From Verrucomicrobiota bacterium (lineage in GTDB: Bacteria; Verrucomicrobiota; Verrucomicrobiia; Palsa-1439), in the NCBI GenBank assembly GCA_037127585.1, contig JBAXYB010000002.1, forward strand, positions 3,701-67,700: DNA of 64,000 bases, given 5' to 3'. Both the position numbers and the translations under genes were made by a program. The notes beneath the pieces are model-generated. The model saw only the letters and a program-made list of their open reading frames with translations, was not told the origin of the DNA and did no database searches. Every line of letters starts with the position of its first letter. The stretch's first letter is position 1. Shown in pieces: positions 3,548-59,598 of the stretch.

Positions 3548-4075
3548 CTAGTCGACCGCGACGTAGACGATCCAGTTGGAGAAAATCAAGATCTGGTTGG
3601 CGCCCGCGTGGAATGGGACTTCCACCCGGTCCGCATCGGGATGATAACCGCGCAGTTCCTTGCCTTGCCACACGAGGTTGCCATTCACCCAGACCGCGAA
3701 TCCGGGCGAGCCCCCCAACTGTAAAGTCGCTTTCTTTTCGCTCGCCGCATTAACGATGGTGAGCGCGAAGGCGCCCGTCGTTGTCGAGGCCATGCCGGGG
3801 TGCGTGGGGACAACGACCTGCCCTAATGGCATGACGCCGCCGCGTTGAATCCAACATTCCTGCCACCAACTGGTCTGGGCGGCTTCCGATTCCCGGTCAA
3901 ACTTCCGCCAGCCGGCTTTGAGCAGATCCGTTTCAGCGGGAAGTTCCGGCACGGGTGGATAGGGCGTCCCGGCTTTCCAAGGTGTGGCCGGCGCGATGGA
4001 CCACTCGGTCAACATTCCCGGCTCGACGGAAACTTTCTCGATGAGCGGGGCCGAGCAACCGAGCGCATCGAGCAC
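3548..4075 (-). CDS. hypothetical protein, possibly a C-terminal fragment of a larger carbohydrate-binding protein; lies in a gene-decay region
   Basis: 175-aa ORF with protein-like composition (GAFALTIVNAASEKKATLQLGGSPGFAVWVNGNLVWQG) but no signal peptide or recognisable N-terminus. Flanked by stop-interrupted frames. Confidence 0.3.
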   Translation of the reverse strand: MLDALGCSAPLIEKVSVEPGMLTEWSIAPATPWKAGTPYPPVPELPAETDLLKAGWRKFDRESEAAQTSWWQECWIQRGGVMPLGQVVVPTHPGMASTTTGAFALTIVNAASEKKATLQLGGSPGFAVWVNGNLVWQGKELRGYHPDADRVEVPFHAGANQILIFSNWIVYVAVD

Positions 4076-4112: not shown

Positions 4113-4715
4113 TGGACGCCGTCCGGTCCCCAGAGAATCTACGCCGACTCCGCCGGCGGCGTTCGCCGGTCGGAGACAGCGTTCGCCTCGGCGATTGACG
4201 CCGCGCGCGTCCCGAGTCGGATCTTTGGGGTCCAAGATGCCGGGCGGGATGGCGAGCATCTGGAGCAGATACCGGCGGACCAGGTGGCGTGGGAGTTGGC
4301 GGAAAGTCGGAAACAGTTGGAGGATTTATTCCAGCGCCCCATCCGCGGCTTCGCCTATCCGTACAGCACGTACAGTCCGTCTGTGAAAGAGGAAGTTCGC
4401 CGGTAAGGCTCCGTCTACGCGCGGACGGCTATTCCCGGCCCCGAGTACGCCGTCGCACCGATCAACGTCCCCTCGGTCTTTCCACCCACTGACCCCATGG
4501 AGTTTGGGACCACGACACATCGGTTGAACCCGCGCATTTGGGACGAGTTTAACCACACGAAGGTCACCGGCGGCGTGTTTCATTTCTGGGGACACAGTTA
4601 CGAATTCTTGAACGAAACGATGTGGAAAGAATTTGAAGCGAAGCGCGCCCGGCTCAGCGCCGATCCGGACGTTCGCTGGATGACCAACCTCGATCTCTTC
4701 AACGAACCGCGATAA
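4113..4715 (+). pseudogene. polysaccharide deacetylase-family gene remnant (C-terminal part only) interrupted by an in-frame TAA at ~4404-4406
   Basis: A single reading frame (phase of ORF 4497..4715) translates ...LEDLFQRPIRGFAYPYSTYSPSVKEEVRR*GSVYARTAIPGPEY...MEFGTT...GGVFHFWGHSYEF. FAYPYx...EEVRRaGY.yA.Tt.pG is the typical PF01522 C-terminal pattern. The stop falls where Ala/Gly-Tyr is expected. TGA at 4110-4112 closes the frame upstream, so no intact N-terminal catalytic half is present. Confidence 0.5.
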
Positions 4716-5688
4716 CGGTTTCCCGCTCCACCGACTCAATTGCCGCCGCCAAAACTTTCTGCGCCGCGAGTCCATCGGCACCGGAGCCATCGATCTGCTC
4801 AGGCGCCACACCGCCGGCAACCTCTTCCACGAACTTGTTGATCCGGTTGCGGAAGGTGTCTTCAAAATCGCGCATCCCCCCGAAAATCGGATTGGTGTAG
4901 ACGGTTTTTTCCAATGTCTCGGCCGGGTAGAGCGTGACTTCCCGGAACATATCGTCGAGGACGAAGCGGCCACCGGTGCCGGCCACTTCGCAGCGTTCCA
5001 TCGGATGGCCGCGCCCGATGTCGTAGCTGCCGGTCAGCGAGCCGACGACGCCATTCTTAAAACGCAAGTTGAACTGCGCCGTGGACCAGATCTTGCGTCC
5101 CGGCGCCTTGGTCGCGAAGCAGTGCACCGCGTCGATGTCGCCGCAGTAGTACCGCATGATATCGATGGTGTGCGGATGCAGCGCCTTGAGATGAAAGTAG
5201 GGCGAACTTTCGTTGGGGTTCATGATCCACATGCCCATGTTGATGAAGAGCAAGTGGCCGAGCCGTCCCTCCGTCACCCACTTCTTCGCGAGCACCGCGG
5301 CCGGGGTGAACCGGTGATTCAAATTCACCCCGAGCGAAAGGCCTTTGACGCGCGCCGTGGCCACCATCTCTTCCGCCTGCGCGATGTCATTGCTGATCGG
5401 TTTCTCACAGAGCACATGGCAACCGGCTTCGAGGGCCTGCAACGTCGGCGCGTAGTGCTCGCTGCCGTATTCGTAACCGCCGGTCGCCACACTACAAATG
5501 GCCGGCTTCAGTTTCGCCAGCATCTCCCGCGCATCGAGAAAATGCGGGACGTCAAACGACTTGCCGGCGGCGGCGGCGCGGTCGGGGCGCAGGTCGCAGA
5601 CGCCCGCCAATTCCGCCAGCGGATTCTCTTGATACAACTTCGCATGCCGGTTCCCAATCGGCCCCATCCCGATGACGCAGACTTTCAT
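4699..5688 (-). CDS. Gfo/Idh/MocA-family NAD(P)-dependent oxidoreductase
   Basis: 329 aa. N-terminal Rossmann VCVIGMGPIGNRHAKL and the family motif CEKPIS...LGVNLNHRF. Confidence 0.85.
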   Translation of the reverse strand: MKVCVIGMGPIGNRHAKLYQENPLAELAGVCDLRPDRAAAAGKSFDVPHFLDAREMLAKLKPAICSVATGGYEYGSEHYAPTLQALEAGCHVLCEKPISNDIAQAEEMVATARVKGLSLGVNLNHRFTPAAVLAKKWVTEGRLGHLLFINMGMWIMNPNESSPYFHLKALHPHTIDIMRYYCGDIDAVHCFATKAPGRKIWSTAQFNLRFKNGVVGSLTGSYDIGRGHPMERCEVAGTGGRFVLDDMFREVTLYPAETLEKTVYTNPIFGGMRDFEDTFRNRINKFVEEVAGGVAPEQIDGSGADGLAAQKVLAAAIESVERETVIAVR

Positions 5689-6398
5689 TTGTATTTGTAT
5701 GCCTGCAATGCCGGCGCGAAGAAATCAAAATCGTGCACGCCGGTATCGGTCTGCCACCGGCCAATCACGTCGGGACGCACCGGAATGCGGGCCAGCGGAA
5801 TCCCGAGAAACTTCTCCAGGCGCTTGAGCGTTTTCTCCTGGTGCAGGACAAAATCCTCGAAGCGCACTTCGATCCAGTGCGCCGGGCGCGGTGTGGCTTT
5901 CACGAGATCGTATTGATACTTCCAGGAAATCGCGCGCCGGCGCCGTTCGTCGTCCGTTACCGGGTACTTGATTCCGAAACCTCGCAGATCGTCCGTCACG
6001 TGGTGGCCGATGATGCAATCCCGTGGGTCACGAATCCAGAAGATATATTTGATGTCCGGGAACAAGCGTTGGATCCACGGATACGCCAGCGTCGTCTCCG
6101 GTATCTTCCAGCCCCGGTGATCCGCGGCACTTTTCAGGACGGACTTCAAATACGAGTCGATGAGGCGCTGGAACTTGGCCGGAATTCTCTTTTTGTGTAA
6201 CGCGCTGAAATCCCAGTTCAACTCGCCCAGCCATTTGACGTGGGGCGCGAGGACCCGGCAAGCGTCATACATTTCTTCCGGCGGGAGGAGATCGCCGGAC
6301 ACGTTCAGCGGTGCGCCCATGTCCACGCCGCTGGCCGACAGCGTGTGCGACATCGCGCGCGTGCCGGAATGGCCCCGGCCAATGACGGTGACCAGCAT
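5685..6398 (-). CDS. PAPS-dependent sulfotransferase (Sulfotransfer_3 / Stf-type)
   Basis: ORF 5685..6608. Internal ATG at 6398 abuts the stop of the upstream gene. 5'-PSB motif GRGHSGTRAM and 3'-PB motif WIRDPRDxIIGH are present. Confidence 0.8.
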   Translation of the reverse strand: MLVTVIGRGHSGTRAMSHTLSASGVDMGAPLNVSGDLLPPEEMYDACRVLAPHVKWLGELNWDFSALHKKRIPAKFQRLIDSYLKSVLKSAADHRGWKIPETTLAYPWIQRLFPDIKYIFWIRDPRDCIIGHHVTDDLRGFGIKYPVTDDERRRRAISWKYQYDLVKATPRPAHWIEVRFEDFVLHQEKTLKRLEKFLGIPLARIPVRPDVIGRWQTDTGVHDFDFFAPALQAYKYK

Positions 6399-6399
6399 C

Positions 6400-7818
6400 T
6401 CAGATCTTCGATCCGCGTTGGGTTTCGTGTTCCTTGCGGACGGCGTTCGCCTGCAACTTTTGCGCGGCGACCATCGAGCCGATGTACATCGAATCGTAGG
6501 CCTGCTGCGAGGTCTTGAATGGCCCGAATTCATTGCCGTGCCAGTTGAGGTTTGTGAACATCGGGTTCGGTCGGCCGGTCTCTTTCTCGCGCTTGGCGAT
6601 CCACGCATTCATCCGCGCATCGAGCAGCTTCACGATCTCCGGTTCCTTCTTGGCGAGGTTGTGATTTTCCAATGGATCGCGCACGAGGTCGTAGAGTTCG
6701 ACTTCCGGTTTGAAATGGAAGTCCGGTTCCAAGGCGCGGATGTATTTCCACTGCGGTGTCCGCCAACCGTGTTTCCGCATCCACGTGCATTCCGTGATGT
6801 AAAACTCCGGCTCCACCTCACGCACTTTACCGCGCATCACCGGCGCGAGACTCCGCCCGTTGTATTTGATGCCGGTTTTGACGCCCATCAGGTCGAGAAT
6901 CGTCGGCGTCGTGTCCTTGGCTTGCGTGATGTCGGCGAACCGTTTCCCCGCCGGCACCTTGCCTGGCCAGACAAACGCCAGCGGCAACACCAATGTCGGC
7001 TCATACAAACCGTGGTGATCAAAGTAGCATTCGTGTTCATCAAGCGTCTCGCCGTGGTCGGCGGTGATGACTACCAGCGTGTCTTCGGTCAACCCGAGCG
7101 CGGTGATCTGCGCGAACAGATTCGCAATGGCCGCGTCCATGTACGCGACCGCCCCATCGTACTGGGCGTTCACGTATTCCGCGTCGGTGCAACCCTCTGG
7201 CAACCAGCTCGTGATGTAATCGCGAAACGGCTTGAACGCCTTCATCTTGTCCAGCGAATGATTACCGGGGTCGCTCTCGTTACCTTGGTAGAACATCCGC
7301 TCGAACGGCAACGGCGGCAGATACGGCGAGTGCGGATCCATGTGGCGCAAGAAAAGGAAAAACGGCTTGTCGTCACCGGCGAGCCGCGTCAACTCCGGGA
7401 TTGTCACCTTGTTCAACTCTTCCGCCTTCGGACTCCGGCCGCCCTGCGTGCCGGGGCCCCAGCCGGGAAATTCGAGGTACTTCTGAAACCCGCGCGAAGC
7501 CGGGTTGCCGCCAAACCCGACGCACGTCGTCTGGTAACCGGCCTCGCCGAGAATTTCCGCCAGTGTTTTCACGTGCGCCCCCAGCGGGCCGGCATGCCGG
7601 AGCGCCACCACATCCGTCCCGAAACAATCCATCCCGGTAAACATCGAGCTGTAGCCCGGCGTCGTCGGGATGTGCGGACTGAAATGACTCTCAAACACCG
7701 TCCCTTGCGCCGCGAACTTGTCGATATGCGGCGTTGTCAGCCGGTGATACCCGTACAAACTCATGTGGTCCCGCCGCAGACTGTCGATCCCGAACAGAAT
7801 TAGATTTGGTTTTTTCAT
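6400..7818 (-). CDS. sulfatase-family (alkaline phosphatase superfamily) protein lacking the formylglycine motif (T-T-P-G-Y in place of C/S-x-P-S-R); cytoplasmic
   Basis: 472 aa. Sulfatase signatures GIDSLRRD, LFLRHMDPHSPY, VVITADHGE and YDLVRDPLENHNLA are present. No signal peptide. The nucleophile position carries Thr. Confidence 0.8.
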   Translation of the reverse strand: MKKPNLILFGIDSLRRDHMSLYGYHRLTTPHIDKFAAQGTVFESHFSPHIPTTPGYSSMFTGMDCFGTDVVALRHAGPLGAHVKTLAEILGEAGYQTTCVGFGGNPASRGFQKYLEFPGWGPGTQGGRSPKAEELNKVTIPELTRLAGDDKPFFLFLRHMDPHSPYLPPLPFERMFYQGNESDPGNHSLDKMKAFKPFRDYITSWLPEGCTDAEYVNAQYDGAVAYMDAAIANLFAQITALGLTEDTLVVITADHGETLDEHECYFDHHGLYEPTLVLPLAFVWPGKVPAGKRFADITQAKDTTPTILDLMGVKTGIKYNGRSLAPVMRGKVREVEPEFYITECTWMRKHGWRTPQWKYIRALEPDFHFKPEVELYDLVRDPLENHNLAKKEPEIVKLLDARMNAWIAKREKETGRPNPMFTNLNWHGNEFGPFKTSQQAYDSMYIGSMVAAQKLQANAVRKEHETQRGSKI

Positions 7819-8798
7819 AAACTGATTCGCTTTCCTTGTTTGTCCGATTCATAACACGCCAGCACCAGCCGCAACACCTCCCGGCCTTCCGCCGCCGTCG
7901 CGAGCGATGGTCGTTTACTCTGGAGAAACTCGAGCAGCGGCCCGGCCAGACCGCGGATCCGCTCCCCGTGATCCTTGATCTCCGGCAACTCACTGGCCGT
8001 CCACTTCTCATCGCGAAACCACTTCAACTGCGGTCCCGCGCCCGGCGGCCGCGGCCCATTGCAACTCGGCACATCGCCGTAGTTCTGGATGATCACGCCG
8101 CGCTCGCAAATCACTTCCGTGACATTCTCCCCAGCCAACGCCAAGAAACTGCACGACACCTCGCCGAGCGCCCCATCCGCATACCGGAATAACGCGATGC
8201 CGGTATCGTTCGCCAGCGACATTGTGCTCAACTCCGCGCTGACGCTGACCGGCAGACCTTTGAGCCAATAGAGAAAATCAATCGGATGCGCCGCGTCGTC
8301 GGCGAAAATGTCGCGATTCAATTCCGGTTGGACATGCCACGATTTGTCGAAATCCTTGAACGTCTGGGTTGGTAACCCATGCCGGCGGCGCACCATGTAA
8401 ACCTTGCCGAACTCCGGCAAGAGCGCCTTCAGTTGCAGGTTGTGCGGATCGACGCGCATCTGCCACGCGAGCGTGAACGGCACATTCTTTGTCGCCGCCA
8501 CAATCCGGTCAGCCTCCGCCAACGTCAGCGCGAGCGGTTTCTGCAAGATGATGGCCTTGCCGGCGGCGGCGGCTTGTTCGACCAGTTCCGCGTGCCGGGA
8601 AGTCTCGGAGGCGATGACGACCGCGTCCACTTGCCGGAGGACATCCGCGACGGAGTCGGCGACTGGAATGCCGGACTTTTTCGCGCGCTCGACATCATGA
8701 TCCCAACCGGCCACGAGTTGCACATCGTCACGCTTCCGCCATTCGCCGATGTACATCCCGACGTGACCGTGCGCGAAACCGAGGATGCCGAGATTCAT
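7815..8798 (-). CDS. Gfo/Idh/MocA-family oxidoreductase
   Basis: ORF 7815..8864. Start at the Met giving MNLGILGFAHGHVG (8798), which abuts the next gene's stop. QKPLALT family motif. Confidence 0.8.
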   Translation of the reverse strand: MNLGILGFAHGHVGMYIGEWRKRDDVQLVAGWDHDVERAKKSGIPVADSVADVLRQVDAVVIASETSRHAELVEQAAAAGKAIILQKPLALTLAEADRIVAATKNVPFTLAWQMRVDPHNLQLKALLPEFGKVYMVRRRHGLPTQTFKDFDKSWHVQPELNRDIFADDAAHPIDFLYWLKGLPVSVSAELSTMSLANDTGIALFRYADGALGEVSCSFLALAGENVTEVICERGVIIQNYGDVPSCNGPRPPGAGPQLKWFRDEKWTASELPEIKDHGERIRGLAGPLLEFLQSKRPSLATAAEGREVLRLVLACYESDKQGKRISL

Positions 8799-9568
8799 CG
8801 TGCTCCGCTGGCTTGGAGACAGGCTTGCATGTGACCGCGCGCTTCCGCCGCGATGGCGACGCACCGGGGAATGTCATACTCCTTTGCGCCGATGACTTCC
8901 AAGTCGACTGGGCCGGTATAACCCGCTTGATGCAACGTGCGGATGTAGCCGAGCAAATCAATCTCGCCCCGGCCGTTGGCTTGCATCTCGGGGGTGCCGG
9001 GATTTTGTTGTCGGCCCTTGCAGTCGCGGATGTGAACGTGCTTGATGCGCTTCACGACCGCGCTGAGCGCATCGACCGGGTTTTCGTTCGCGCGATGAAT
9101 GTGACTCGGATCCATATCCAGCCCGATGGCCGGGATCGCCTGCAAGGCGCGCAGCGTCGTCGGTGTGTTGTAGATCGCCGCGCCGACGTGAGCCTTGAAG
9201 CACAACGTAACGCCGTACTTGCCGGCTAGGGCGGCGAGTTTACCGAGGGAGTCGATGGATTGCTGGAACGTCGCCTCGTCGTTGCTCTTGCCGCCGGGGC
9301 CGCAGTTGACGATGGGGCAACCCATGGCGGCTGCGGCTTGGAAGGCGACCTCCATTGTGGCCGGGTCTTGCGACGGCTGTTCCATCGCGAGAATCGGGAC
9401 GTTGTACTTCGCCGACAGCTCCTTGAGCGCTACCGGCCCGATCATGTGGTCGCTCATGCCGTTGATGGCGGAAATCTCCAAGCCATCATAACCACAGATG
9501 GCCGCATACTTGAACGCGGTCTCGACATCGTGACCGCCAAAGAGAACAGAATTAAAGCCGATTTTCAT
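8795..9568 (-). CDS. sugar phosphate isomerase/epimerase (xylose isomerase-like TIM barrel)
   Basis: 257 aa. Typical AP endonuclease 2 / IolI-like pattern (GYDGLEIS ... HVHIRD). Confidence 0.8.
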   Translation of the reverse strand: MKIGFNSVLFGGHDVETAFKYAAICGYDGLEISAINGMSDHMIGPVALKELSAKYNVPILAMEQPSQDPATMEVAFQAAAAMGCPIVNCGPGGKSNDEATFQQSIDSLGKLAALAGKYGVTLCFKAHVGAAIYNTPTTLRALQAIPAIGLDMDPSHIHRANENPVDALSAVVKRIKHVHIRDCKGRQQNPGTPEMQANGRGEIDLLGYIRTLHQAGYTGPVDLEVIGAKEYDIPRCVAIAAEARGHMQACLQASGAR

Positions 9569-9580
9569 AGGGAACTCCGG

Positions 9581-10690
9581 TTATTGGTCGCGCGGGTCGC
9601 GGTTGAGCGACGGGAGCGGATGCGGGCGCACGAGCGTGCCGCCTTGTTCGTAGGACTCAATCGCCGCGAACGTGTATTCGAGCGTCGCCAACGCATCCCG
9701 CCCGGACGAGCGCAGGGCGTGTTTCGGCACGCGATTCGTCAGGTCTTCAAGATAGGCGTGGATGCGCGTCGGAAACGTCGCGCCGAAATCTTTGACGCCG
9801 GTATCCGTGACAACCGGGGTGGGTTGCTGGCCGAGGCCGAACGACTGGCCTGCCGCGGGGGCCGGGTAGTAGGTCAGTTTCTCGGTGACGTTCTCGATGC
9901 AGAACGTGCCTTTCGTGCCGCCGAGTTCAAAACTCCACCAACCGCCCAACCCCATAGTCGCGTCGCCGCGCGAACTAAAAAGATAGCCGATGGCGCCGCT
10001 CTGGAATTTCACGTGGACGCTGGCGATCGACACCATTAAATCCGCGGCATGCCGGCGCACGCTGGGGCGATCCATGAACGCCTGGATGTGCGTGATGTCG
10101 CCGCAGAAATGCCGGAGCAAACTGAACGGGTGCGCGAGAAACGCCTTGAGATGGGCGTAGGGGAAGCCGTCGAAATTCGGACCCGCGCCGGCTTTGTAGG
10201 TGTCTTCGCCGCCGACGAAGCCCGCCCGGTGCAGACAGTAAATCTGTTCACCGATCTTGCCGTCCGCCATCAACTGCTTCGCCTGCCGGGCCGGTTCGGT
10301 GAAAAAGTGGTTCAGGTTGCAGCCGAGGTACAAATCCTTTTCCGCGGCGAATTTCACCAAATCGCGCGCTTCCTGGATGTCATTGGAAATGGGTTTTTCC
10401 ACCAGCACATTCTTGCCGGCGGCGAGGGCAAGCATCGCGGGCGCGAAATGCCAACTGCCGTTTTCGCTGCCGCCCGTCGAAACATCGACGATGTCCAACT
10501 CGGGATGCGCGGCGAGCATGTCCTCGAGCCGGTAGTAGGCTTTGACTTTGTGCTTGGCGGCGACTTCATCCGCGCGGCTCTTGACCACATCGCAAACGGC
10601 GACAAGTTTCGCGAGCGCGTCCGTCGCATAACTCTGCGCGTGTGTCTGCCCGATGCCTTTTAATCCAACGACTCCGACGTTTAATGCCAT
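9581..10690 (-). CDS. Gfo/Idh/MocA-family oxidoreductase (paralog of 4699..5688)
   Basis: ORF 9581..10783. Start at Met32 (MALNVGVVGLKGIGQ). VEKPISNDI ... LGCNLNHFF closely parallels the 4699..5688 product. Confidence 0.85.
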   Translation of the reverse strand: MALNVGVVGLKGIGQTHAQSYATDALAKLVAVCDVVKSRADEVAAKHKVKAYYRLEDMLAAHPELDIVDVSTGGSENGSWHFAPAMLALAAGKNVLVEKPISNDIQEARDLVKFAAEKDLYLGCNLNHFFTEPARQAKQLMADGKIGEQIYCLHRAGFVGGEDTYKAGAGPNFDGFPYAHLKAFLAHPFSLLRHFCGDITHIQAFMDRPSVRRHAADLMVSIASVHVKFQSGAIGYLFSSRGDATMGLGGWWSFELGGTKGTFCIENVTEKLTYYPAPAAGQSFGLGQQPTPVVTDTGVKDFGATFPTRIHAYLEDLTNRVPKHALRSSGRDALATLEYTFAAIESYEQGGTLVRPHPLPSLNRDPRDQ

Positions 10691-10781
10691 GGTGATTTCC
10701 TTTGTTCGACGAGTCGCGACAGTAGCGGACAACCGGCGACGTGTCCTTGACAATCCCGCCAAACATCTGGACGATCCTGCC

Positions 10782-11645
10782 ATGGCTCAACACCTGCGTG
10801 GCGCGGACCTTTTTTCCGACCGGCATTTTCGGCTGCACGTCATGCGGCTGCCGCAACACGGTGCGTCGCGGGAACAACACACGCATGACTTCAATGAATT
10901 AGTGGTAATTCTGGCCGGCCACGGCCAACATGAAGTGGGCCGGGAAGTCTATGACATCAGTGCCGGCGATGTGTTCGCGCTTTTGGGCGACGCGAGTCAT
11001 TGCTACCCCGAGGTCAAAAACCTCTCGCTGATCAATATCCTGTACGATCCCGCCACCCTGCGTTTCCCCCGGGCCGACCTCGGCGCGGTGCCGGGATATC
11101 ACGCGCTGTTCGAGGTCGAACCGCGGCTCCGGCAACGCCAACGGTTCCAAAACCGGCTCAAGCTCAACATGACGGAACTCGGACAACTCGCGAAGTTGAT
11201 CGCTGATTTGGAAGCCGAGCTGCGCGCCAAGACGCCCGGCTCGCGCTTCCTCGCGACCGCACACTTGATGCGCATCATTGGTTTTTTGGCGCGGGCCTAC
11301 AGCCAGATTCCGGTCACGCAGCGCCGCCCGGTCACTCAACTCAGCGAACTGCTCGGTTATATGGAACAGCATTTCACCGAACCGTTGACCATCGGCAATC
11401 TGGCCCGCGCGGCGCACATGTCGGAGACGTCATTGTTTCGGCAATTCCGTCAGGTCATGGGCCGGTCGCCGATTGACTACTTGATCCGGTTGCGCATTCA
11501 CAAAGCCGCCCAACTGTTGCGCCGGGAACAGATGCGCGTGAAAGAGGCCAGCGCGGCGGTTGGTTTCACCGACAGCAACTATTTCACCCGGCAATTCGCC
11601 AAGGTCATGAGCGTCAGCCCCCGCGAATATCAGCGGCGGAAATAG
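10782..11645 (+). CDS. AraC-family transcriptional regulator with N-terminal cupin sensor domain
   Basis: ORF 10653..11645. Start chosen at Met44 (10782), divergent from the operon at 10690. C-terminal double HTH (SLFRQFRQVMGRSPIDYL ... NYFTRQFAKVMSVSPREYQ). Confidence 0.8.
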   Translation: MAQHLRGADLFSDRHFRLHVMRLPQHGASREQHTHDFNELVVILAGHGQHEVGREVYDISAGDVFALLGDASHCYPEVKNLSLINILYDPATLRFPRADLGAVPGYHALFEVEPRLRQRQRFQNRLKLNMTELGQLAKLIADLEAELRAKTPGSRFLATAHLMRIIGFLARAYSQIPVTQRRPVTQLSELLGYMEQHFTEPLTIGNLARAAHMSETSLFRQFRQVMGRSPIDYLIRLRIHKAAQLLRREQMRVKEASAAVGFTDSNYFTRQFAKVMSVSPREYQRRK

Positions 11646-23046: not shown

Positions 23047-25221
23047 TTAGTACGGGAGGGGGAACCGGCCTGTCAGCGCTTTGACCTTGTCTTTCACCCG
23101 AGCTTGCACGGTCGTGTCAGCGGGGGCGAGGAGGACTTCGTCAATCAACGCGGCAATTTGTGTCATCTCGCCCACTTGCATCCCACGGGTCGTCATCGCG
23201 GGGGTGCCGATGCGGATGCCGCTGGTGACCGCGGGTTTTTCCGGGTCGAATGGGATCATGTTTTTGTTCACGGTGATGCCGGCGTGATCGAGGGCTTCTT
23301 GCGCGATCTTGCCGGTGAGTTTCTTCGGGCGCAGATCGACGAGCATCAGGTGATTATCGGTGCCGCCGCTGACGATCCGGTAGCCTTTTCCGGTCAGGGC
23401 CGCGGCGAGGGCCTGGGCATTCTTGACGACTTGCTGTTGGTAGGTCTTGAACTCCGGTTGCAGGGCTTCTTTGAAGCAAATGGCTTTGGCGGCAATGACG
23501 TGTTCGAGGGGGCCGCCTTGGATGCCGGGGAAGATTTGGGAGTTCACTGTTTTGGCGAGTCCTTCTTTGCAGAGTATCAACCCGCCGCGCGGGCCACGGA
23601 GGGTTTTGTGCGTCGTGGTCGTGACGATGTCCGCATACGGGACCGGGCTCGGATGGACTCCGGCCGCGACGAGGCCGGCAATGTGTGCCATGTCCACAAT
23701 CAAGGCTGCGCCGACTTCTTTGGCGATGGCAGCGAACGCGGCGAAATCGAGGATGCGCGGGTAAGCGCTGGCGCCGGCGATAATGATGCGCGGTTTTTCT
23801 GCGCGGGCAAGGCGCGCGAGTTCGTCCATGTCGATGCGTTCGTCCGTGGCGCTCAGGCCGTACGGGACGATGCGGAATAACTTGCCGGAGAAGTTGACCG
23901 GCGAACCGTGCGTCAGATGGCCGCCAAAATTCAGGCTCATCGCGAGAATGGTGTCGCCCGGTTTGGCGACGGCGAAGAACGCGGCCATGTTGGCTTGCGA
24001 ACCGGAGTGCGGCTGGACGTTGGCGTGTTCGGCGCCGAAGAGTTGTTTGGCGCGGTCGATGGCGAGCTGCTCGACGACGTCCACGCATTCACAGCCGCCG
24101 TAGTAACGCTTGCCGGGGTAGCCTTCGGCGTATTTGTTGGTGAGCACCGTGCCGGTGGCTTCGAGGATGGCCGGGGAGACGAAGTTCTCGCTGGCGATCA
24201 GTTCGATGTTGTCCTGCTGGCGTTGTTGCTCGTGCTGGATGGCGCCGAAGATCTCGGGGTCGACTTGCTCGATGGCTGAGGTTTTGTTTTTTAGTGGTGT
24301 GGGTGGGTTGTCCATTTTCTTTACGCGCCGCTCGTGGCGGCCTCCTTCAAATTCGGTTTTGAGCCAGGCTTCGAGTATCAATGTCGCCTTGGCGTCGTTC
24401 ATTTCCAAGGCGGAGAGGACGAGAATGTTGGCGTCGTTGTGTTCGCGGCTCAGTTTCGCCCAGTGCTCGTCGTTGACCAGCGCCGCGCGGGCGCCGATGA
24501 CGCGGTTGGCGGCGATGCTCATGCCGATGCCGCTTTTGCAGATGAGCACGCCGCGGTCGAAGTTGCCGGTGGCCACTTCGCGGGCGACGACGAACGCGTA
24601 ATCGGGATAGTCCACAGCATCCGTCGAGTGGGTGCCGAAATCGGCGAATTGATATCCGTGTTGCACGAGCCAGTCTTTGACGGTTTCTTTCATCGCGACG
24701 CCCCCATGGTCGGCGGCGACGGCCACGCGGGTGACTTGCCGGGGCTTGGGGGATTCGCGGTGCACTTCGGTGCCTTTGATGAATTCCAAAATGCTCGGCA
24801 ACGCCTGCTGGATCTGGTCACGGGTGCGCCGATAGACGTCGAGCGATTGGCCAATCGGATCGGACACGTCTCGGCCAATGACTTCGGCGTCCTCGAATTC
24901 CCGCAGCAGAAAAGTTTTTTCGGCCGCGCTCGGATAAAACGCTTGGATCGTGTCCTGTTGTTGCCGGGTCATCGTAAAGATGAAGTCAGCGGCTTCGACC
25001 AACGGGACACGCAACGACTGGCTGACGTGGCTGGCAATGTCCAACCCGATTTCAGCCATCGCTTGCACGGACTCCGGGCTGGCCAGTTGGCCATCGAGCG
25101 CGCCAATGCCGGCGGACGCGACCCGGTAGTTTGGATTATTACCCAACGCAGCGCGCAACAACCCCTCCGCCATCGGGCTGCGACAGACGTTGCCGGTGCA
25201 GATAAAGAGGATCGTTTTCAT
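23047..25221 (-). CDS. glyA: tri-domain fusion protein: low-molecular-weight protein tyrosine (arginine) phosphatase + ribose-5-phosphate isomerase B + serine hydroxymethyltransferase
   Basis: Single uninterrupted 724-aa ORF. aa 1-~155: LMW-PTP with P-loop CTGNVCRS and DP general-acid motif. aa ~160-~305: RpiB/LacAB ([10 protein letters not shown] ... [15 protein letters not shown]). aa ~310-724: SHMT (IASENF ... [14 protein letters not shown] with the PLP lysine). Domains are joined by short linkers with no intervening stops. Confidence 0.85.
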
Positions 25222-28592: not shown

Positions 28593-31500
28593 TTAGGAAC
28601 AGCCCATGGAGTTGCCACAGTTCAGGCACTTGTAGCACGCGCCGTTGCGGACGGTGATCGCGCCGCAGGTGTCGCAGGTCGGGGCATCGGTCATGAAGTG
28701 CGCGATGGTTTTGCTCAGGGCTTGGACGCTGGTCAACGGCCGGGCGGCGACTTCGCCGGTCTGTTCCAGATCCTGGACGGGCCGGTTGACGGCTTTTTGC
28801 TCTTGTTCGGCGACTTCTTTGAGTGGCAATTCGGTCTGGCCGGCGTTGGGCGAGTTGGCTTCGCGGTAGCCGGGGATGAACTGGCAAGCCAGCCAACGGA
28901 AGAGGTAGTCGGTGATCGACTTGGCAATCGGAATGTCCGGGTTCTTCGTGAAGCCGGACGGTTCGAACCGTTGGTGGGCGAATTTTTTGACGAGCGTTTC
29001 GAGCGGCACGCCGTATTGAAACGCCATGCTGACGAGGGTGCCGATGGTGTCCATGAGGCCGCCGATGGTCGAGCCTTCTTTGGCCATGGTGATGAACAAC
29101 TCGCCGGGGGTGCCGTCTTCGTAGAGCCCGACGGTGATGTAGCCTTCGTGGCCGGCAATGTCGAATTTGTGCGTGACCGCCTGCCGCGTGTCCGGCAACC
29201 GATGGCGCAGGGGCGCGGCGGCGCGGGTGCGCAGTTCGTTAATTTCGGAATCGAGTTCGAGGATGCGCGATTTGAGTTCGTCCGTTTCCTGAACGGTCGG
29301 GGCGGGCTTGCCGCTGTTGGTCTTGGACGTGTTGAGAGGCTGGGAACGTTTCGAGCCGTCCCGGTAGATCGCAACCGCCTTGAGGCCGAGCTTCCAGCCT
29401 TCAATGTACGTCTGCATGATGTCGTCAACCGTGGCGTCCTGGGGCATGTTGACGGTCTTGGAGATGGCGCCGCTGAGGAACGGTTGCGCCGCGGCCATCA
29501 TCTTGAGGTGCGCCAGATAATGGATGGTGCGTTTGCCTTTGGCGGGTTTGAACGCGCAGTCGAACACCGGCAGGTGTTTGTCTTGCAGATCCGGCGCGCC
29601 TTCGATGGTGTCGTTCGCGTCGACGAACTTCACAATGTCGGTGATCTGGGACTCGCTGTAGCCGAGTTTGCGCAAGGCCATCGGCACGGTCCGGTTGACG
29701 ATTTTCAGCATCCCGCCGCCGGCGAGGAGTTTGTATTTCACGAGCGCGATGTCGGGTTCGACGCCGGTGGTGTCGCAGTCCATCATGAACGCGATCGTGC
29801 CGGTCGGCGCGAGGACGGTGACTTGGGAGTTGCGATAGCCGTACCGGCGACCGAGCTCGACGGCTTCGTCGCCACAACGTTGCGCGGCAGCCCGGAGGTA
29901 GTCGGGGCAGCTCGGGTGAATGCGTTTCACGGAGTCGCGATGTTGTTCCATGACTTGGAGCATCGGCTCGCGGTTCTTCTCGAAGCCTTCAAACGCGCCG
30001 AGCTTCTCGGCGATCCGTGCGGATTGCACGTAGGCTTGGAGGTGGATGATGGCCGTCAACGCGCCGGCAATGGAGCGTCCTTCGTCGCTGTCGTAGGGCA
30101 GACCGAGCGCCATGAGCAGCGAACCGAGGTTCGCGTAGCCGAGACCGAGCGGGCGGAAGAGATGGCTGTTCTGCGCGATGTCATTGGTCGGATAACTCGC
30201 GTTATCGACCATGATTTCCTGGGCGGTAATGAAGATTTCAGCGGCGGCTTTGTAGCGTTCGACATCAAAGGTGCCGTCGTCGCGGAGGAACTTCATCAAA
30301 TTCAGCGAGGCGAGGTTGCACGCGCTGTTGTCGAGGAACATGTACTCGGAGCACGGGTTGCTGGAGTTGATCGGTGCGGTGTTTTTGCAGGTGTGCCAGC
30401 GTTGGATGGTGTCCTCGTACTGGACGCCGGGATCGCCGCAGGTCCACGTGCCTTCGGCGATGCCTTGCATCAACTCGCGGGCTTTGTACGTCGGGCCGGG
30501 CTTGCTGGGGTCGGTGACCCAGTGGGTCGTCCAATCCTTGTCGTCGATGACGGCGCGCATGAACTCGTCGGTCACGCGGACGCTGAGGTTTTCATTTTGG
30601 AACGAGACGGAGCCGTAGGCGTCCCCGTTGAAGTCGCCCGAATAGCCGGCTTCAATCAACGACCACGCTTTCCGCTCTTCCTTCGGCTTGGCTTCGATGA
30701 AGTCCTTGATGTCCGGATGCCAGACTTTCAAGGTGTTCATCTTCGCCGCGCGCCGGGTCTTGCCGCCCGATTTCACCACGCTGGCGATCGAATCGAACAC
30801 GCGCAGGAACGACATCGGCCCGCTCGGCCGGCCGCCGCCGGACAGTTTCTCGCGCCGGCTGCGCAACGTGGAGAGATCGGTGCCGGTGCCGCTGCCATAC
30901 TTGAAGAGCATCGCTTCGGCCCGCGCCAATTCCATGATGTCTTCCATCGTGTCGCCCACCGATTGGATGAAACAGGCTGAGCACTGCGGATACTCGTATT
31001 GCGTGGTGGCCTGTTTGATCTGGTTTGTCTGGCGGTCGAAGCAGAAGTTACCGGGGCCGCTGTTTTTCCCGATGTGATATTCGTGATAGAGACCGCAGTT
31101 GAACCAGACCGGCGAGTTAAACGAGCCGTACTGGTTGACGCACAACCAGGTCAACTCGTCATAGAACGCATCGGCGTCCTTATCGCTGGCGAAATAGCCC
31201 TGCGCGCGACCCCAGTCTGAGACGGTGTTAGTGACGCGGTGGACGAGTTGCCGGACGCTGTGCTCGCGTTCGCTGGTGCCGTTCTCGCCGTAGAAATATT
31301 TTGAGACCACGACCTTCGTCGCGAGAATCGACCAGTTCTTCGGCACTTCGACGTTGTCCTGTTTGAAGATCGTCTTGCCGGCGTCATCGGTAATCTCGGC
31401 TTTGCGGCGTTCCCATTCGAGTTCGTCGAACGGTTTCACGCCGGCCCGACTGAAAACGCGCGGCACAATTAGCCCATTTTTCTTGGCGCTCGGTTTGGAT

Positions 31501-31607
31501 CGTTTACTCGGACTGCTGATGGTGGGAATATCGGCTTCAACTTCTTTACGGCTTAACTTTGTTTTATGCACAGAAAATACTCCTGTGCTCTGCTTCAGAT
31601 TGATCAC
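28593..31607 (-). CDS. nrdJ: class II adenosylcobalamin-dependent ribonucleotide reductase
   Basis: 1004 aa. B12-dependent RNR conserved core plus a C-terminal Cys-rich Zn-ribbon (CDTCGAITVRNGACYKCLNCG). GTG start preceded by AGGAGG at a 5-nt spacing. Confidence 0.9.
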   Translation of the reverse strand: MINLKQSTGVFSVHKTKLSRKEVEADIPTISSPSKRSKPSAKKNGLIVPRVFSRAGVKPFDELEWERRKAEITDDAGKTIFKQDNVEVPKNWSILATKVVVSKYFYGENGTSEREHSVRQLVHRVTNTVSDWGRAQGYFASDKDADAFYDELTWLCVNQYGSFNSPVWFNCGLYHEYHIGKNSGPGNFCFDRQTNQIKQATTQYEYPQCSACFIQSVGDTMEDIMELARAEAMLFKYGSGTGTDLSTLRSRREKLSGGGRPSGPMSFLRVFDSIASVVKSGGKTRRAAKMNTLKVWHPDIKDFIEAKPKEERKAWSLIEAGYSGDFNGDAYGSVSFQNENLSVRVTDEFMRAVIDDKDWTTHWVTDPSKPGPTYKARELMQGIAEGTWTCGDPGVQYEDTIQRWHTCKNTAPINSSNPCSEYMFLDNSACNLASLNLMKFLRDDGTFDVERYKAAAEIFITAQEIMVDNASYPTNDIAQNSHLFRPLGLGYANLGSLLMALGLPYDSDEGRSIAGALTAIIHLQAYVQSARIAEKLGAFEGFEKNREPMLQVMEQHRDSVKRIHPSCPDYLRAAAQRCGDEAVELGRRYGYRNSQVTVLAPTGTIAFMMDCDTTGVEPDIALVKYKLLAGGGMLKIVNRTVPMALRKLGYSESQITDIVKFVDANDTIEGAPDLQDKHLPVFDCAFKPAKGKRTIHYLAHLKMMAAAQPFLSGAISKTVNMPQDATVDDIMQTYIEGWKLGLKAVAIYRDGSKRSQPLNTSKTNSGKPAPTVQETDELKSRILELDSEINELRTRAAAPLRHRLPDTRQAVTHKFDIAGHEGYITVGLYEDGTPGELFITMAKEGSTIGGLMDTIGTLVSMAFQYGVPLETLVKKFAHQRFEPSGFTKNPDIPIAKSITDYLFRWLACQFIPGYREANSPNAGQTELPLKEVAEQEQKAVNRPVQDLEQTGEVAARPLTSVQALSKTIAHFMTDAPTCDTCGAITVRNGACYKCLNCGNSMGCS

Positions 31608-56317: not shown

Positions 56318-57589
56318 TCAGGCTTTTTTGACGCAGCAGTGCAGGATGTCGTAGGGCTTGATGTCTTTGAGTTGTGGGCCGGTAACGAGATAGATGCTAT
56401 CGGTCAGCCGTTCGACGCTGCGGTGGTAGTCCCACCGGAGCATCGCGGTGTGTTGGACGACGAACCGCGGATCGTCATCCCGGAAACACGAGACGCAACT
56501 CGGGTCCGGCAGGCCAACGAGGAATTGGTCGGCGCTGAGGTTGTGCGCGGTCGTCTCATAGAAATCGGCAAACATGATGAACGACGCCGCAAATGGATGA
56601 TCGACGTAGCTGATGGCGCGGGTTTCGCCTTCGTCATCGCGCAAGCCGCGCGGCGCGGTGGGCGGGATGGCGTAGAGGTTTTCCAGAAGGTCGTTGCGGA
56701 TGGCGGCGAGCGAATCAATGCCCCAGGATTTGAGGCGTTCGCCATTGACGCCGTAGTTGAACACGGTGCCTTGGATCACCGCCCCGAGCGCCAGGCCCGG
56801 CCAGAGTTTCAACCGATGCGCCGGTAACGCGCCGCTGCCGGTACGAAAAAGTTTCGGGAACAACAGCGGTTTGACCGATTTGAGGCAAGTGAGATCCGGC
56901 ACGTCGTCGCCGCAGTAGTCGAGCAAGCCCATGTGGGACTCGATCAATTCATCCATGCGCTCCGGCTCCTGGAGGTAGTGGTTGAAAAGATGTTCGAGCA
57001 GGATTGTCTGGCCGTCGGCAAGAGTCAGGGAGAGGCCGGTCGGGGGTTGGTTGACGAGTTGCGGGCGGTGCCGTTTCAACAAGCAGTAGTAATAATTTGT
57101 GAAACTATTGGCGTCGAGGTGATGGATATTGGTCAGCAAGAGGGAATTGATAATGCCGTCCAAATCCTCGTCATCCACTCCTGCATCGGTGCTCCGGCAC
57201 CGGTAGAGGCCGCGCACTTGCGTATCGCCCCGCGTGAACACCCACGCCCGCGTATGGCCAAAATCCGTCGCATGCGCCTCGTCCTTCGGTTCGATCCGCG
57301 TGTAGGTCGTGTACGCGAAATTCATGTAATCGCGACTGCGGCGTTGAATGTGAGGCTCGCCGATTTGCGCCCAGGTGCGGCGTTCGGCTTCGGTCAACGT
57401 GCGGAGCGTTTTCTCGGGGCGCAATTCGTCCACATTCGGCTGGTCAAATTCGTACGCCTCAATTTTGAGATAGCCGCCCGTGGTGAGGCTCGCCAAACTC
57501 ACGTGTTGCGAGCCTTCATGCGTCAGCGGTAACCACCCCTCGGGGTAGTCCAGCGTATAAAGGCTCTCGGGATCGCTGTATTCAGGCAT
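56318..57589 (-). CDS. hypothetical protein (423 aa, soluble)
   Basis: Long ORF with protein-like composition and a 3-periodic codon pattern. No domain recognised. Confidence 0.5.
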   Translation of the reverse strand: MPEYSDPESLYTLDYPEGWLPLTHEGSQHVSLASLTTGGYLKIEAYEFDQPNVDELRPEKTLRTLTEAERRTWAQIGEPHIQRRSRDYMNFAYTTYTRIEPKDEAHATDFGHTRAWVFTRGDTQVRGLYRCRSTDAGVDDEDLDGIINSLLLTNIHHLDANSFTNYYYCLLKRHRPQLVNQPPTGLSLTLADGQTILLEHLFNHYLQEPERMDELIESHMGLLDYCGDDVPDLTCLKSVKPLLFPKLFRTGSGALPAHRLKLWPGLALGAVIQGTVFNYGVNGERLKSWGIDSLAAIRNDLLENLYAIPPTAPRGLRDDEGETRAISYVDHPFAASFIMFADFYETTAHNLSADQFLVGLPDPSCVSCFRDDDPRFVVQHTAMLRWDYHRSVERLTDSIYLVTGPQLKDIKPYDILHCCVKKA

Positions 57590-58201: not shown

Positions 58202-59251
58202 TTACCGGCCCATCAGCCGGTGGACGAGCCACACGCCCACCACCGCGACCCCGGCAAGGATCATCCAGTACTTGTCCCACCACGATGCCGTGTCCTGTAA
58301 AATATCCGTGGACACCGGCGCCCCATCACTCGCCGCCGCGACAGCCGGTGCAGCGGGCGTGAGCCGGCGGTTTATCTCCGCCAGTTGGGCGCGCATCTTC
58401 TCCACCTGCGGGCGCAACTTCTTCAATTGCGATTCAGCGGCCGTCAATTCAGTTTGGGCGCGCAACCGATTGCTGCTTTCGACCCCGAGTTTGCCGTCAC
58501 CGGGAGACGGATTGGCCTTCGCCGGCTTCGCCGAGCCCTGCGCTCTCTCCAACCGGTGTTGCGCGGCGGCGAGTTCGGGCTCGAGTTGCTCGAGCTGCGG
58601 CTGCAAGACGACCCGCCACGCCGTCAACGCCTCCGTCGCTTGCCGGTTGGCGAGGGCTTCCGTCACCCCGCTGGGACGCAGCGCGAGCAAGGCGTCGTAA
58701 GCGCGCACGGCCTGCGGCCATTGTTTGGCTGCGAACGCGTCGTTTCCTTGTTTCATCAAGGTCTGGATATTGTCGCGCAGTTGCCGCTTCTCGCGTTCCT
58801 CCTTCGTGAGCCACGTGCCGTCGACTTTGACCATGCCGGCAGCGACCTTCTGGCGCTCTGCTTGCCACTGCGCGAGCCGGTCAGTGACCTCTTGTTCGTA
58901 CGACGAACCGGGATAGGTCGTCAGGAAGTTTTGCAATTCGCCAATCGCTTTATCATAGGCCACCACCGAAGCACTCGTGTCCGGATCCGGTCCAGTTTTG
59001 GCCAACGTCTGGTACGCCCGCTGCATGGCCACGACTCGCTTTTGTTCCGGGGTCCACCGCGCGAAAGTGGTCACGGTCGATTTGGGGATGACCTGGTTCT
59101 GCAAAATCGTGCCGCCAGCGATGGCCACCTCGATGGTGAGGTTGGACTCGGTCTCGCCGACGATGGTTCCTTCCACCGTCTTGCCGTCGTGGAGTTGGAT
59201 CGTGTCCGCCGACACGGTGGCCACCAACACGAATAGCCAACGCCACTTCAT
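58202..59251 (-). CDS. hypothetical secreted coiled-coil protein with C-terminal TM anchor
   Basis: 349 aa. N-terminal signal peptide, long Ala/Gln/Leu-rich coiled coil, C-terminal hydrophobic helix. Confidence 0.5.
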   Translation of the reverse strand: MKWRWLFVLVATVSADTIQLHDGKTVEGTIVGETESNLTIEVAIAGGTILQNQVIPKSTVTTFARWTPEQKRVVAMQRAYQTLAKTGPDPDTSASVVAYDKAIGELQNFLTTYPGSSYEQEVTDRLAQWQAERQKVAAGMVKVDGTWLTKEEREKRQLRDNIQTLMKQGNDAFAAKQWPQAVRAYDALLALRPSGVTEALANRQATEALTAWRVVLQPQLEQLEPELAAAQHRLERAQGSAKPAKANPSPGDGKLGVESSNRLRAQTELTAAESQLKKLRPQVEKMRAQLAEINRRLTPAAPAVAAASDGAPVSTDILQDTASWWDKYWMILAGVAVVGVWLVHRLMGR

Positions 59252-59598
59252 CGTTGCGTCCGGTAAATCTCGATCGCCACGTACTGCGAGCCGGGAATGC
59301 TGAATTTCTTCACTTCGACCGTTACCGCCACCGCGAGGCGCTTTTGCAGAATCGCCCCGGCAATTTCGTCGGCCACCGCTTCCACTAATTTGCGCGGCCG
59401 TTGCGCCACGACTTGTTTAACGAGGTCCGTGACGACGTCGTAGCCGGTGGTGGACGCTTCCATGTCGGTGCGGCCGGCCTCAGCGAGATCGCGTTCCATG
59501 ATCACCGTGACCAAGAGCCGTTGCGTGTGGGCCCGTTCGGCCGCCGTTACGCCGATGTTGGTTTGGACTTCTAAATCCTTGATTGTGATTTTATCCAT
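59248..59598 (-). CDS. folB: dihydroneopterin aldolase
   Basis: 116 aa. IKDLEVQTNIGVTAAERAHTQRLLVTV is the FolB N-terminal signature. Confidence 0.85.
   Translation of the reverse strand: MDKITIKDLEVQTNIGVTAAERAHTQRLLVTVIMERDLAEAGRTDMEASTTGYDVVTDLVKQVVAQRPRKLVEAVADEIAGAILQKRLAVAVTVEVKKFSIPGSQYVAIEIYRTQR

Follow-up and report, generated by a model that had tools for sequence, protein, structure and literature searches.

A stretch of 64,000 nucleotides from a Verrucomicrobiota bacterium (contig JBAXYB010000002.1, positions 3,701 to 67,700, assembly GCA_037127585.1; the window in what follows) contains an operon of six enzyme genes and a divergent AraC-type regulator gene. By its enzyme families the operon appears to be an oxidoreductive sugar-conversion module joined to sulfate-ester chemistry. 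It encodes three Gfo/Idh/MocA-family proteins (GFO_A, GFO_B and GFO_C), a xylose-isomerase-like TIM-barrel protein (TIM), a sulfatase-fold protein with threonine at the nucleophile position (SLH, hereafter Thr-type) and a predicted cytoplasmic sulfotransferase (SULT). Comparison with related loci places GFO, TIM and SLH at the core of the cluster and SULT as an accessory, since SULT accompanies SLH in only 19 of 29 loci. The module is built from known enzyme families and is horizontally spread. Pfam profiles returned the gene content that the initial annotation had read from the DNA, namely GFO, TIM, GFO, sulfatase fold, Sulfotransfer_3 and GFO together with a cupin-AraC protein.

Conservation was followed from two anchors. 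The SULT-anchored scan covered one genome per GTDB species, in which at least 581 stretches encode a SULT relative; gene counts were taken from 51 loci with at least 4 kb on each side, and phyla from the best 80 of the 581 or more stretches. SLH-anchored counts were made on metagenome contigs (29 loci with flanks of at least 4 kb), and spurious antisense open reading frames (ORFs) that the greedy ORF caller produced in high-GC loci were left out of the neighbour clusters. The best 80 SULT stretches come from Verrucomicrobiota, Lentisphaerota, Kiritimatiellia, Planctomycetota, Chloroflexota and Armatimonadota, and further from KSB1, Deinococcota, Poribacteria, one alphaproteobacterium and 'Spirochaetia'. 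The cluster is known from more than ten phyla, Bacillota included, with protein identities of 60-90%. Around SULT, GFO genes were detected in 41, TIM in 40 and SLH in 38 of the 51 loci, with all three in 37; a lone SULT was seen in 10 loci, 8 of them 'Spirochaetia' metagenome-assembled genomes (MAGs). Around SLH, GFO and TIM occur together in 26 of the 29 loci. In loci of the Planctomycetes-Verrucomicrobia-Chlamydiae (PVC) group the order is AraC, divergent from GFO_A-TIM-GFO_B-SLH-SULT-GFO_C, and the same components appear in the order SLH-GFO-SULT-GFO_C-TIM in Chloroflexota, Armatimonadota and Deinococcota.

Versions of the cluster without SULT define its status. In some operons, such as L133 and L094, synteny is complete but for SULT, GFO_C coming straight after SLH, and Alicyclobacillus and two Paenibacillus genomes carry GFO-TIM-SLH without SULT. 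Two Bacillota loci (L083 and L168) hold multi-copy versions of the module with no sulfotransferase; that of Alicyclobacillus fodiniaquatilis (L083, 8092-19122) is composed of GFO-TIM-SLH, a cytoplasmic sulfatase of the formylglycine (FGly) type (CSPAR), AraC, GFO-TIM and a second Thr-type sulfatase-like gene. Six SLH loci, all of them lacking SULT, carry this second gene (motif DIPTEVAHT). A plasmid search for SLH identified Paenibacillus cellulositrophicus, a cultured carrier, and a plasmid search for SULT found nothing. The initial annotation had suggested that a sulfotransferase gene missing from orthologous operons would be a chance insertion. It is indeed missing, from 10 of the 29 SLH loci, from Bacillota and from some syntenic operons; however, 37 of the 51 SULT loci hold SLH, GFO and TIM, so no chance insertion is involved. 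SULT is a recurrent and strongly conserved accessory, present in about two thirds of SLH-anchored clusters, and is not indispensable. GC content (0.59-0.61) and GC content at third codon positions (GC3, 0.76-0.79) are even over the six operon genes, with a GC3 of 0.74 for the AraC gene, and this uniformity gives no sign that SULT was recently inserted.

SLH carries T52-T53-P54-G55-Y56 at the site where FGly sulfatases have C/S-x-P-x-R. In three HMMER alignments (4uph, 7oz8 and 9koq), T52 is positioned opposite the FGly Cys/Ser and Y56 opposite the motif Arg, which bears out the earlier description of a sulfatase-family enzyme lacking FGly. The second sulfatase signature, G-Y-x-T-x-x-x-G-K-x-H, reads G94-Y-Q-T-T-C-V-G-F102-G-G in SLH, with F102 aligned to the signature Lys of 9koq. 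Among 24 SLH homologues (mean column identity 79%), T52, T53, Y56 and F102 are invariant, and so are the metal site (D12, D254 and H255) and H163, the histidine of the P-H-x-P motif. The top Foldseek matches of the predicted fold are S1 carbohydrate sulfatases (E 1e-23), choline sulfatase and phosphonate monoester hydrolases (PMH), and the fold is not of the membrane-bound phosphoethanolamine or lipoteichoic acid transferase type; the active-site loop (49-77) is modeled with low confidence, with a predicted local distance difference test score (pLDDT) below 50 at the T52 loop. SLH shares with the S1 FGly sulfatases and PMH of the alkaline phosphatase superfamily (for example, 4uph, 2vqr and 6fny) the two-domain fold, the N-terminal metal-binding Asp, the D-H-G-E metal motif and the P-H-x-P histidine; it differs from them in having Thr for the FGly precursor, Tyr for the Arg and Phe for the Lys, and in lacking a signal peptide. 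We infer that SLH descends from the S1 sulfatases/PMH, with the FGly machinery swapped for a putative Thr nucleophile. According to the SulfAtlas authors, PF00884 members of the Thr type are still uncharacterised and cannot be counted among the FGly sulfatases (PMC5066984).

SULT scores 62.7 bits against PF13469 (cut-off 27), and its AlphaFold (AF2) model has a pLDDT of 92.5. Every one of the 40 best Foldseek matches is a sulfotransferase (probability 0.97-1.0), with TPST1/2, the sulfotransferase domains of CurM and olefin synthase (OLS) and heparan sulfate 3-OST at the top. The segment G7-R-G-H-S-G-T-R14, invariant in 25 SULT homologues, is located between strand 2-7 and helix 10-22, and R123-D-P-R-D127 (R123, P125, R126 and D127 invariant in the same homologues) follows strand 117-122, so that the 5'-phosphosulfate loop and the 3'-phosphate motif are placed as expected for a fold that uses 3'-phosphoadenosine 5'-phosphosulfate (PAPS). 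Fold and Pfam thus agree with the initial call of a PAPS-type sulfotransferase, and both motifs cited for it, GRGHSGT and IRDPRD, are present. Most positions from I6 to A15 are invariant in the 25 homologues, as is GWKIPETTL. In the alignment to TPST, the Lys and Arg of its segment K-D-P ... V-R-D-G-R have their counterparts in K98 and R123; H10 occupies the site of the TPST Arg by inspection only, the N-terminal loop being aligned to TPST by no tool. All of the 120 best database clusters for SULT are at least 69% identical, and clustering at 50% leaves 127 SULT-family representatives under E 1e-30. Among the latter are relatives (43-62% identity) fused to GT61, GT4, CE15 glucuronoyl-esterase-like, TPR and methyltransferase domains (P0242-P0245, P0292 and P0296). 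Two SULT-CE15 fusions were read from DNA (L060, 4153-6126, and L061, 6546-8540), and they have little or no room for a signal peptide because the sulfotransferase domain begins at residue 4 or 13; the genes adjoining them are unrelated. The GT and CE15 fusions suggest that the acceptor of the SULT family is a carbohydrate.

The three GFO proteins all exhibit the two-domain Gfo/Idh/MocA architecture, a Rossmann domain followed by a C-terminal alpha/beta domain, and match PF01408 and PF22725, with PF02894 in addition in GFO_B and GFO_C. The EKP catalytic motif is conserved in GFO_A (LVEKPIS) and GFO_C (LCEKPIS); GFO_B has QKP instead. The best NCBIfam models for GFO_A are iolG, UDP-GlcNAc 3-dehydrogenase and levoglucosan dehydrogenase, all scoring far under their cut-offs, and the best for GFO_C is the archaeal UDP-GlcNAc 3-dehydrogenase (113 bits against a cut-off of 450). 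Orthologues of GFO_A in related loci are 60-82% identical. Those of GFO_C, at 60-85%, adjoin SULT or SLH in most loci and represent the most widely conserved GFO partner, and GFO_B is found mainly in PVC-type versions (7 of the 29 SLH-anchored loci). TIM belongs to the class annotated as sugar phosphate isomerase/epimerase. It occurs in two subtypes: the window copy is 62-77% identical to that of Chloroflexota and some PVC loci and only 48-55% identical to that of many other PVC loci, which suggests shuffling of the module between lineages. PDB sequence searches with the six enzymes returned only remote relatives, among them 3tva, IolE (3cny) and IolI (1i60) for TIM and DgpA and DgpA2 for GFO_C, GFO_A and GFO_B (E 1e-9 to 1e-13); TIM had no match to DgpB/C at E < 1e-3.

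The operon is formed by six co-directional minus-strand ORFs at 4699-10690, whose coordinates in the ORF list and translations are those of the initial annotation (Table 1). The junctions are, in order, a 12-nt gap, two 4-nt overlaps (GFO_B thus overlapping both of its neighbours), a 1-nt gap and a 4-nt overlap. The tight coupling described before therefore stands, while the statement that all six genes overlap by 1-4 nt fails at the two gaps. Similarly, the cupin-AraC regulator is present and divergent as reported, although the start then given, 10653, is probably too far upstream: a long ORF from that position would overlap the GFO_A start by 38 nt on the opposite strand, and public gene calls give a protein of 287 aa, which fits an ATG at 10782. 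That ATG is probably the true start. The regulator has the layout of AraC/XylS sugar regulators, with a cupin domain (PF02311/PF07883) ahead of two C-terminal helix-turn-helix motifs (PF12833/PF00165); its best NCBIfam models are RhaS/RhaR, under their cut-offs, and a divergent homologue is kept in PVC-type loci. The region between the two transcripts contains no match to the sigma-70 consensus, which is uninformative for the host phylum, and a terminator scan gave only background. Pfam matches begin at residues 1-4 in five of the six operon proteins, which leaves these five no room for a signal peptide, and at residue 20 in TIM. All six are taken to be cytoplasmic, for TIM on the basis of its N-terminal sequence only. 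Housekeeping genes flank the operon (F-ATPase operon, MlaDE, Ppx and RdgC-like).

Table 1. Genes of the operon and its divergent regulator, in window coordinates.
Feature	Position	Strand	Domains and support
AraC/XylS-family regulator	10782..11645	+	N-terminal cupin sugar-binding domain; HTH_18, HTH_AraC, AraC_binding, Cupin_2 (Pfam)
Divergent intergenic region, 91 nt	10691..10781	.	Presumed regulatory region for both transcripts
GFO_A, Gfo/Idh/MocA NAD(P)-dependent sugar dehydrogenase, 369 aa, operon gene 1	9581..10690	-	GFO_IDH_MocA E 7e-22
TIM, xylose-isomerase-like TIM-barrel protein, 257 aa	8795..9568	-	AP_endonuc_2 PF01261 E 3e-25
GFO_B, Gfo/Idh/MocA oxidoreductase, 327 aa	7815..8798	-	GFO_IDH_MocA E 7e-17
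SLH, sulfatase-fold protein	6400..7818	-	Sulfatase PF00884 E 2e-44 + SGSH_C
SULT, predicted cytoplasmic sulfotransferase, 237 aa	5685..6398	-	Sulfotransfer_3 E 8e-17
GFO_C, Gfo/Idh/MocA dehydrogenase, 329 aa, last gene	4699..5688	-	GFO_IDH_MocA E 7e-26

Genes for PAPS synthesis are positioned next to a number of related clusters. On plasmid NZ_CP045296.1 of Paenibacillus cellulositrophicus KACC 16577 (plasmid positions 839749-848524; 9967-18742 in locus L168), a sensor kinase/regulator and a sugar ABC (ATP-binding cassette) transporter are followed by GFO, TIM, SLH, GFO and a stand-alone cysC, after which the operon continues with a second Thr-type sulfatase-like gene, AraC and an FGly-type sulfatase. 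A tblastn search with this Paenibacillus CysC found homologues in 16 further related loci. Counting only matches over at least half of the query, cysC is present in 16, cysN in 11 and cysD in 9 of about 166 related loci, and in three of them Pfam identifies cysD and a cysN-cysC fusion as immediate neighbours of the cluster (L004, 11877-16376; L037, 2563-5380; L130, 3372-6223). In L004, a gene of the inositol-monophosphatase/CysQ family stands immediately after GFO_C and ahead of cysD and cysN-cysC, and by gene content this locus would hold a complete set for PAPS supply and for removal of 3'-phosphoadenosine 5'-phosphate (PAP). By chance, 20 kb taken from a 5-Mb genome should contain a given single-copy gene in about 0.4% of cases; at 16 of about 166 loci, cysC is strongly enriched, although the loci are not phylogenetically independent.

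The surroundings of related loci also bear on the substrate. In Chloroflexota, Deinococcota and Bacillota, the cluster adjoins LacI or AraC regulators and Opp/Dpp-type ABC importers. One type of binding protein is related (E 4e-56) to SPH1118 of Sphingomonas sp. A1, which binds pectin oligosaccharides; the relatives of the other are a mannoside-binding protein, a binder of chitin oligosaccharides and Thermotoga-type binders, the last of which bind cellobiose. Importers of this oligosaccharide type point to a glycoside, rather than a free cyclitol, as the imported compound. A GH78 alpha-L-rhamnosidase gene lies directly downstream of TIM in three of the approximately 166 loci (L042, 12656-15403; L059, 13588-16320; L070, 11847-14426), which belong to Chloroflexota and Deinococcota, and the N-terminus of the enzyme is unlike a signal peptide in each. 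Genes for rhamnogalacturonan-lyase-like and GH67-like proteins and FGly-type sulfatases flank some PVC loci, and cytoplasmic FGly-type sulfatases are seen in some PVC loci and in Bacillota. The neighbours of related loci include no conserved kinase, aldolase or dehydratase, so the product of the route is presumably an ordinary sugar. The contigs that carry related loci come from records labelled lake, peat-bog, activated-sludge and soil.

The reading we prefer, which we hold tentatively and with rather less than even confidence, is that of a sugar-inducible cytoplasmic module in which keto-sugar and sulfate-ester reactions turn a modified sugar or glycoside, once imported, into an ordinary sugar. 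Its probable substrate is an oligosaccharide fragment that has a sulfate ester and is acidic, contains rhamnose or both. In the proposed sequence, the AraC-cupin regulator would sense the sugar and turn on the divergent operon, and one Gfo/Idh/MocA enzyme would then oxidise a ring hydroxyl to the ketone, acidifying the adjacent C-H for use by the metal-dependent TIM barrel in epimerisation or in beta-elimination of a leaving group; a second or third Gfo/Idh/MocA enzyme would reduce the keto product. These oxidoreductive steps are modelled on the logic of the LgdA/B1/B2/C pathway and the AL/BT clusters, which are compared below. SLH, as a metallo-enzyme with T52 as its nucleophile, is predicted to cleave or transfer a sulfate (or phosphate) ester covalently without FGly maturation. 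Where present, SULT would sulfate the substrate or an intermediate from PAPS, either to let unsulfated molecules enter the same route or to convert a poor hydroxyl into a leaving group or recognition handle, and would thus be the sulfate counterpart of a pathway kinase. A bolder statement of the same idea, to which we give only a low probability, is that sulfate esters are used here as phosphate esters are in ordinary sugar metabolism, with SULT as a pathway enzyme and SLH as a member of a new FGly-independent class that cleaves esters or transfers sulfuryl groups. Bolder even than this is a variant in which oxidation beside the ester would yield an alpha-keto or enol sulfate whose sulfuryl group passes to PAP, so that sulfate is salvaged as PAPS without ATP cost.

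Several observations weigh against our preferred scheme. PAPS is costly for a catabolic route, and a sulfotransferase encoded together with an enzyme that cleaves sulfate esters would seem futile unless the positions or molecules on which they act differ. SLH lacks the sulfate-binding Lys and Arg, so that sulfate esters may not be its substrates at all. PAPS genes are also found beside clusters without SULT (L133, L141, L142, L148 and L168); PAPS may accordingly serve something other than SULT, or its genes may reflect assimilation of released sulfate. In the window itself, no transporter gene adjoins the operon and no PAPS (cys) gene is present within the 64 kb. The lone SULT genes of 'Spirochaetia' MAGs, three of which were checked in detail, have housekeeping neighbours (ilvD and leuC, for example) or neighbours with no Pfam match. 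Finally, the window GFO proteins reach no more than 35-60 bits with the model for levoglucosan dehydrogenase (cut-off 650), and the BT_2158/BT_2159 models give 19-43 bits against cut-offs of 650-750.

Two other explanations would also account for the genes of sulfur metabolism, and both strike us as unlikely to a similar degree. PAPS synthesis and a CysQ-like gene adjoining the operon form an arrangement typical of sulfation systems, as would befit a biosynthetic route to a small sulfated molecule (for example, a signal, a precursor or a compatible solute) in which GFO, TIM and GFO make a rarer isomer of a common sugar or cyclitol and SULT sulfates it with PAPS from the adjacent cysDNC genes, SLH being a transferase or turnover enzyme. 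Fusions to glycosyltransferases and to a methyltransferase in the wider SULT family, which are biosynthetic contexts, point the same way, as does the lack of a kinase or aldolase tying the operon to central metabolism. Biosynthesis is harder to reconcile, however, with the oligosaccharide importers and LacI/AraC sugar regulators beside the cluster in Chloroflexota and Bacillota, with FGly sulfatases and GH78 in the same operons, with the one third of clusters that have no SULT, and with the lack of any conserved exporter or glycosyltransferase gene among the neighbours. Much of the sulfur in soils and peat occurs as sulfate esters, and the habitats named in the sample labels of the related loci are of a fitting kind. 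The module might scavenge sulfur: an imported sulfated sugar would be desulfated by SLH or the accompanying sulfatases after the action of GFO and TIM, the cysDNC products would activate the sulfate for assimilation, and SULT would have a side activity or run from PAP to PAPS on an activated (alpha-keto or enol) sulfate. The occurrence of cysD and cysN-cysC beside the cluster even without SULT and the cytoplasmic FGly-type sulfatases of Bacillota and some PVC loci are in keeping with scavenging. Yet the regulators are of the sugar type (AraC-cupin and LacI), with none of the CysB/SftR type detected, SLH is without the sulfate-binding residues of true sulfatases, the CysQ-like PAP phosphatase in L004 argues against a reverse reaction that consumes PAP, and the forward role of SULT is left without explanation.

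A more specialised possibility, distinctly improbable in our estimate, is the deglycosylation of plant phenolic (flavonoid) rhamno-glycosides by oxidation and elimination of the DgpA/DgpBC kind, with SULT conjugating the released aglycone for detoxification and SLH acting on sulfated phenolics. The DgpA/DgpA2 relationship of all three GFO proteins, the cytoplasmic GH78 rhamnosidase right after TIM in three loci of two phyla, the RhaS/RhaR-like regulator and the soil, peat and freshwater sample labels all favour it; but that relationship is remote, TIM has no counterpart match to DgpB/C, GH78 is confined to those three loci and the fused SULT relatives point to carbohydrate acceptors. SULT could instead be a maturase of SLH that sulfates Y56 or T52 of the T-T-P-G-Y loop, comparable to FGE/anSME beside sulfatases, given that the nearest solved structures to SULT are protein-tyrosine sulfotransferases, that SULT directly follows SLH in PVC-type operons and that the replaced motif holds an invariant Tyr. 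We disfavour this idea and consider it very unlikely, since SLH and SULT occur independently of each other: one third of clusters, as well as those of Bacillota, have SLH with an unchanged TTPGY but no SULT, SULT is found without SLH and fused to CE15 or GT domains, and a GFO gene separates the two in Chloroflexota. Hardly credible, at the bottom of the scale, is an ordinary inositol or rare-sugar operon with unrelated sulfotransferase and sulfatase-like neighbours. Its GFO, TIM and AraC content is common in such operons, but the association recurs in more than ten phyla with the gene order changed and the components the same. The initial annotation had seen a classic inositol/rare-sugar signature, and the inositol label is not backed by curated models: IolG (TIGR04380) gives 69-104 bits against a cut-off of 355 and IolE (TIGR04379) 38 bits against 290, and neither the operon nor its flanks yielded any of iolB/C/D/J/A. 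The remaining probability belongs to something else.

If the scheme we prefer is true, the module would be, to our knowledge, the first sugar route of the central type to use a PAPS-dependent sulfotransferase as one of its pathway enzymes and not for decoration, and it would provide a function for a large, unassigned class of Thr-type 'sulfatases' now annotated wholesale as sulfatases. Given how widespread the module is, as measured by the SULT-encoding stretches, it may carry a sizeable flux, so far unrecognised, through the organic sulfur cycle and the turnover of glycans that are sulfated or acidic. Even in a conservative outcome, the triad of GFO, TIM and SLH is a recognisable unit that helps annotation.

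Elsewhere in the window, a 724-aa ORF at 23047-25221 (-) joins a low-molecular-weight phosphotyrosine phosphatase (residues 4-143), an RpiB/LacAB ribose-5-phosphate isomerase (166-303) and a serine hydroxymethyltransferase (317-693), an unusual three-domain fusion unless a stop or frameshift was missed. At 28593-31607 (-) is an ordinary class II (B12-dependent) ribonucleotide reductase of 1004 aa with a C-terminal TSCPD domain. Five sizeable high-GC3 ORFs have no Pfam match at E < 1e-5: 56318-57589 (-), 58202-59251 (-), 59447-60412 (+), 63186-63815 (-) and 3548-4075 (-).

The initial annotation had placed the combination outside described pathways, and our comparisons agree. None of the NCBIfam equivalog models reached its cut-off with any of the seven proteins; full-text literature searches aimed at the cluster found no paper describing it; and a search on desulfation by oxidation/elimination turned up only steroid and bile-acid papers. 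The closest described logic is that of levoglucosan catabolism in Bacillus smithii, where LgdA, LgdB1, LgdB2 and LgdC carry out oxidation, beta-elimination, hydration and reduction (PMC7676230). These enzymes are cytoplasmic Gfo/Idh/MocA and 'sugar phosphate isomerase/epimerase' proteins, the same family pairing that stands side by side in the window operon. The Lgd pathway has two TIM-class proteins where the window operon has one, and lacks the sulfotransferase and sulfatase-fold enzyme that the operon has. In the AL and BT2156-2160 clusters, two Gfo/Idh/MocA enzymes and an isomerase-type lyase/hydratase cleave glycosides through a 3-keto intermediate (bioRxiv 10.1101/2024.03.25.586180). At least three AL proteins have signal peptides and the oxidoreductase is described as periplasmic, whereas the window proteins appear to have none; the AL/BT clusters also include a DUF1080 partner and no sulfur-group enzymes, unlike the window operon. 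The adjacent genes GFO_A-TIM-GFO_B match the family content of the Lgd and AL/BT modules, and similarity to Lgd, AL/BT or Dgp members does not reach the equivalog level.

On the side of sulfation, the sulfotransferase domains of CurM and olefin synthase (4gbm and 4gox), which are among the nearest folds to SULT at 14-16% identity, sulfate a hydroxyl solely to make a leaving group, as is proposed above for SULT. Unlike SULT, they belong to polyketide synthases and act on substrates bound to acyl carrier protein. Known sulfation cassettes include NodH with NodPQ in rhizobia and the cholesterol sulfotransferase cluster BT0412-0416 of Bacteroides. In cassettes of the NodH/NodPQ type, a PAPS-type sulfotransferase is linked to PAPS genes, and related loci of the window operon likewise have cysD, cysN-cysC and a CysQ-like gene; in contrast to those cassettes, SULT is embedded in an operon of oxidoreductases, an isomerase and a sulfatase-fold enzyme under a sugar regulator.

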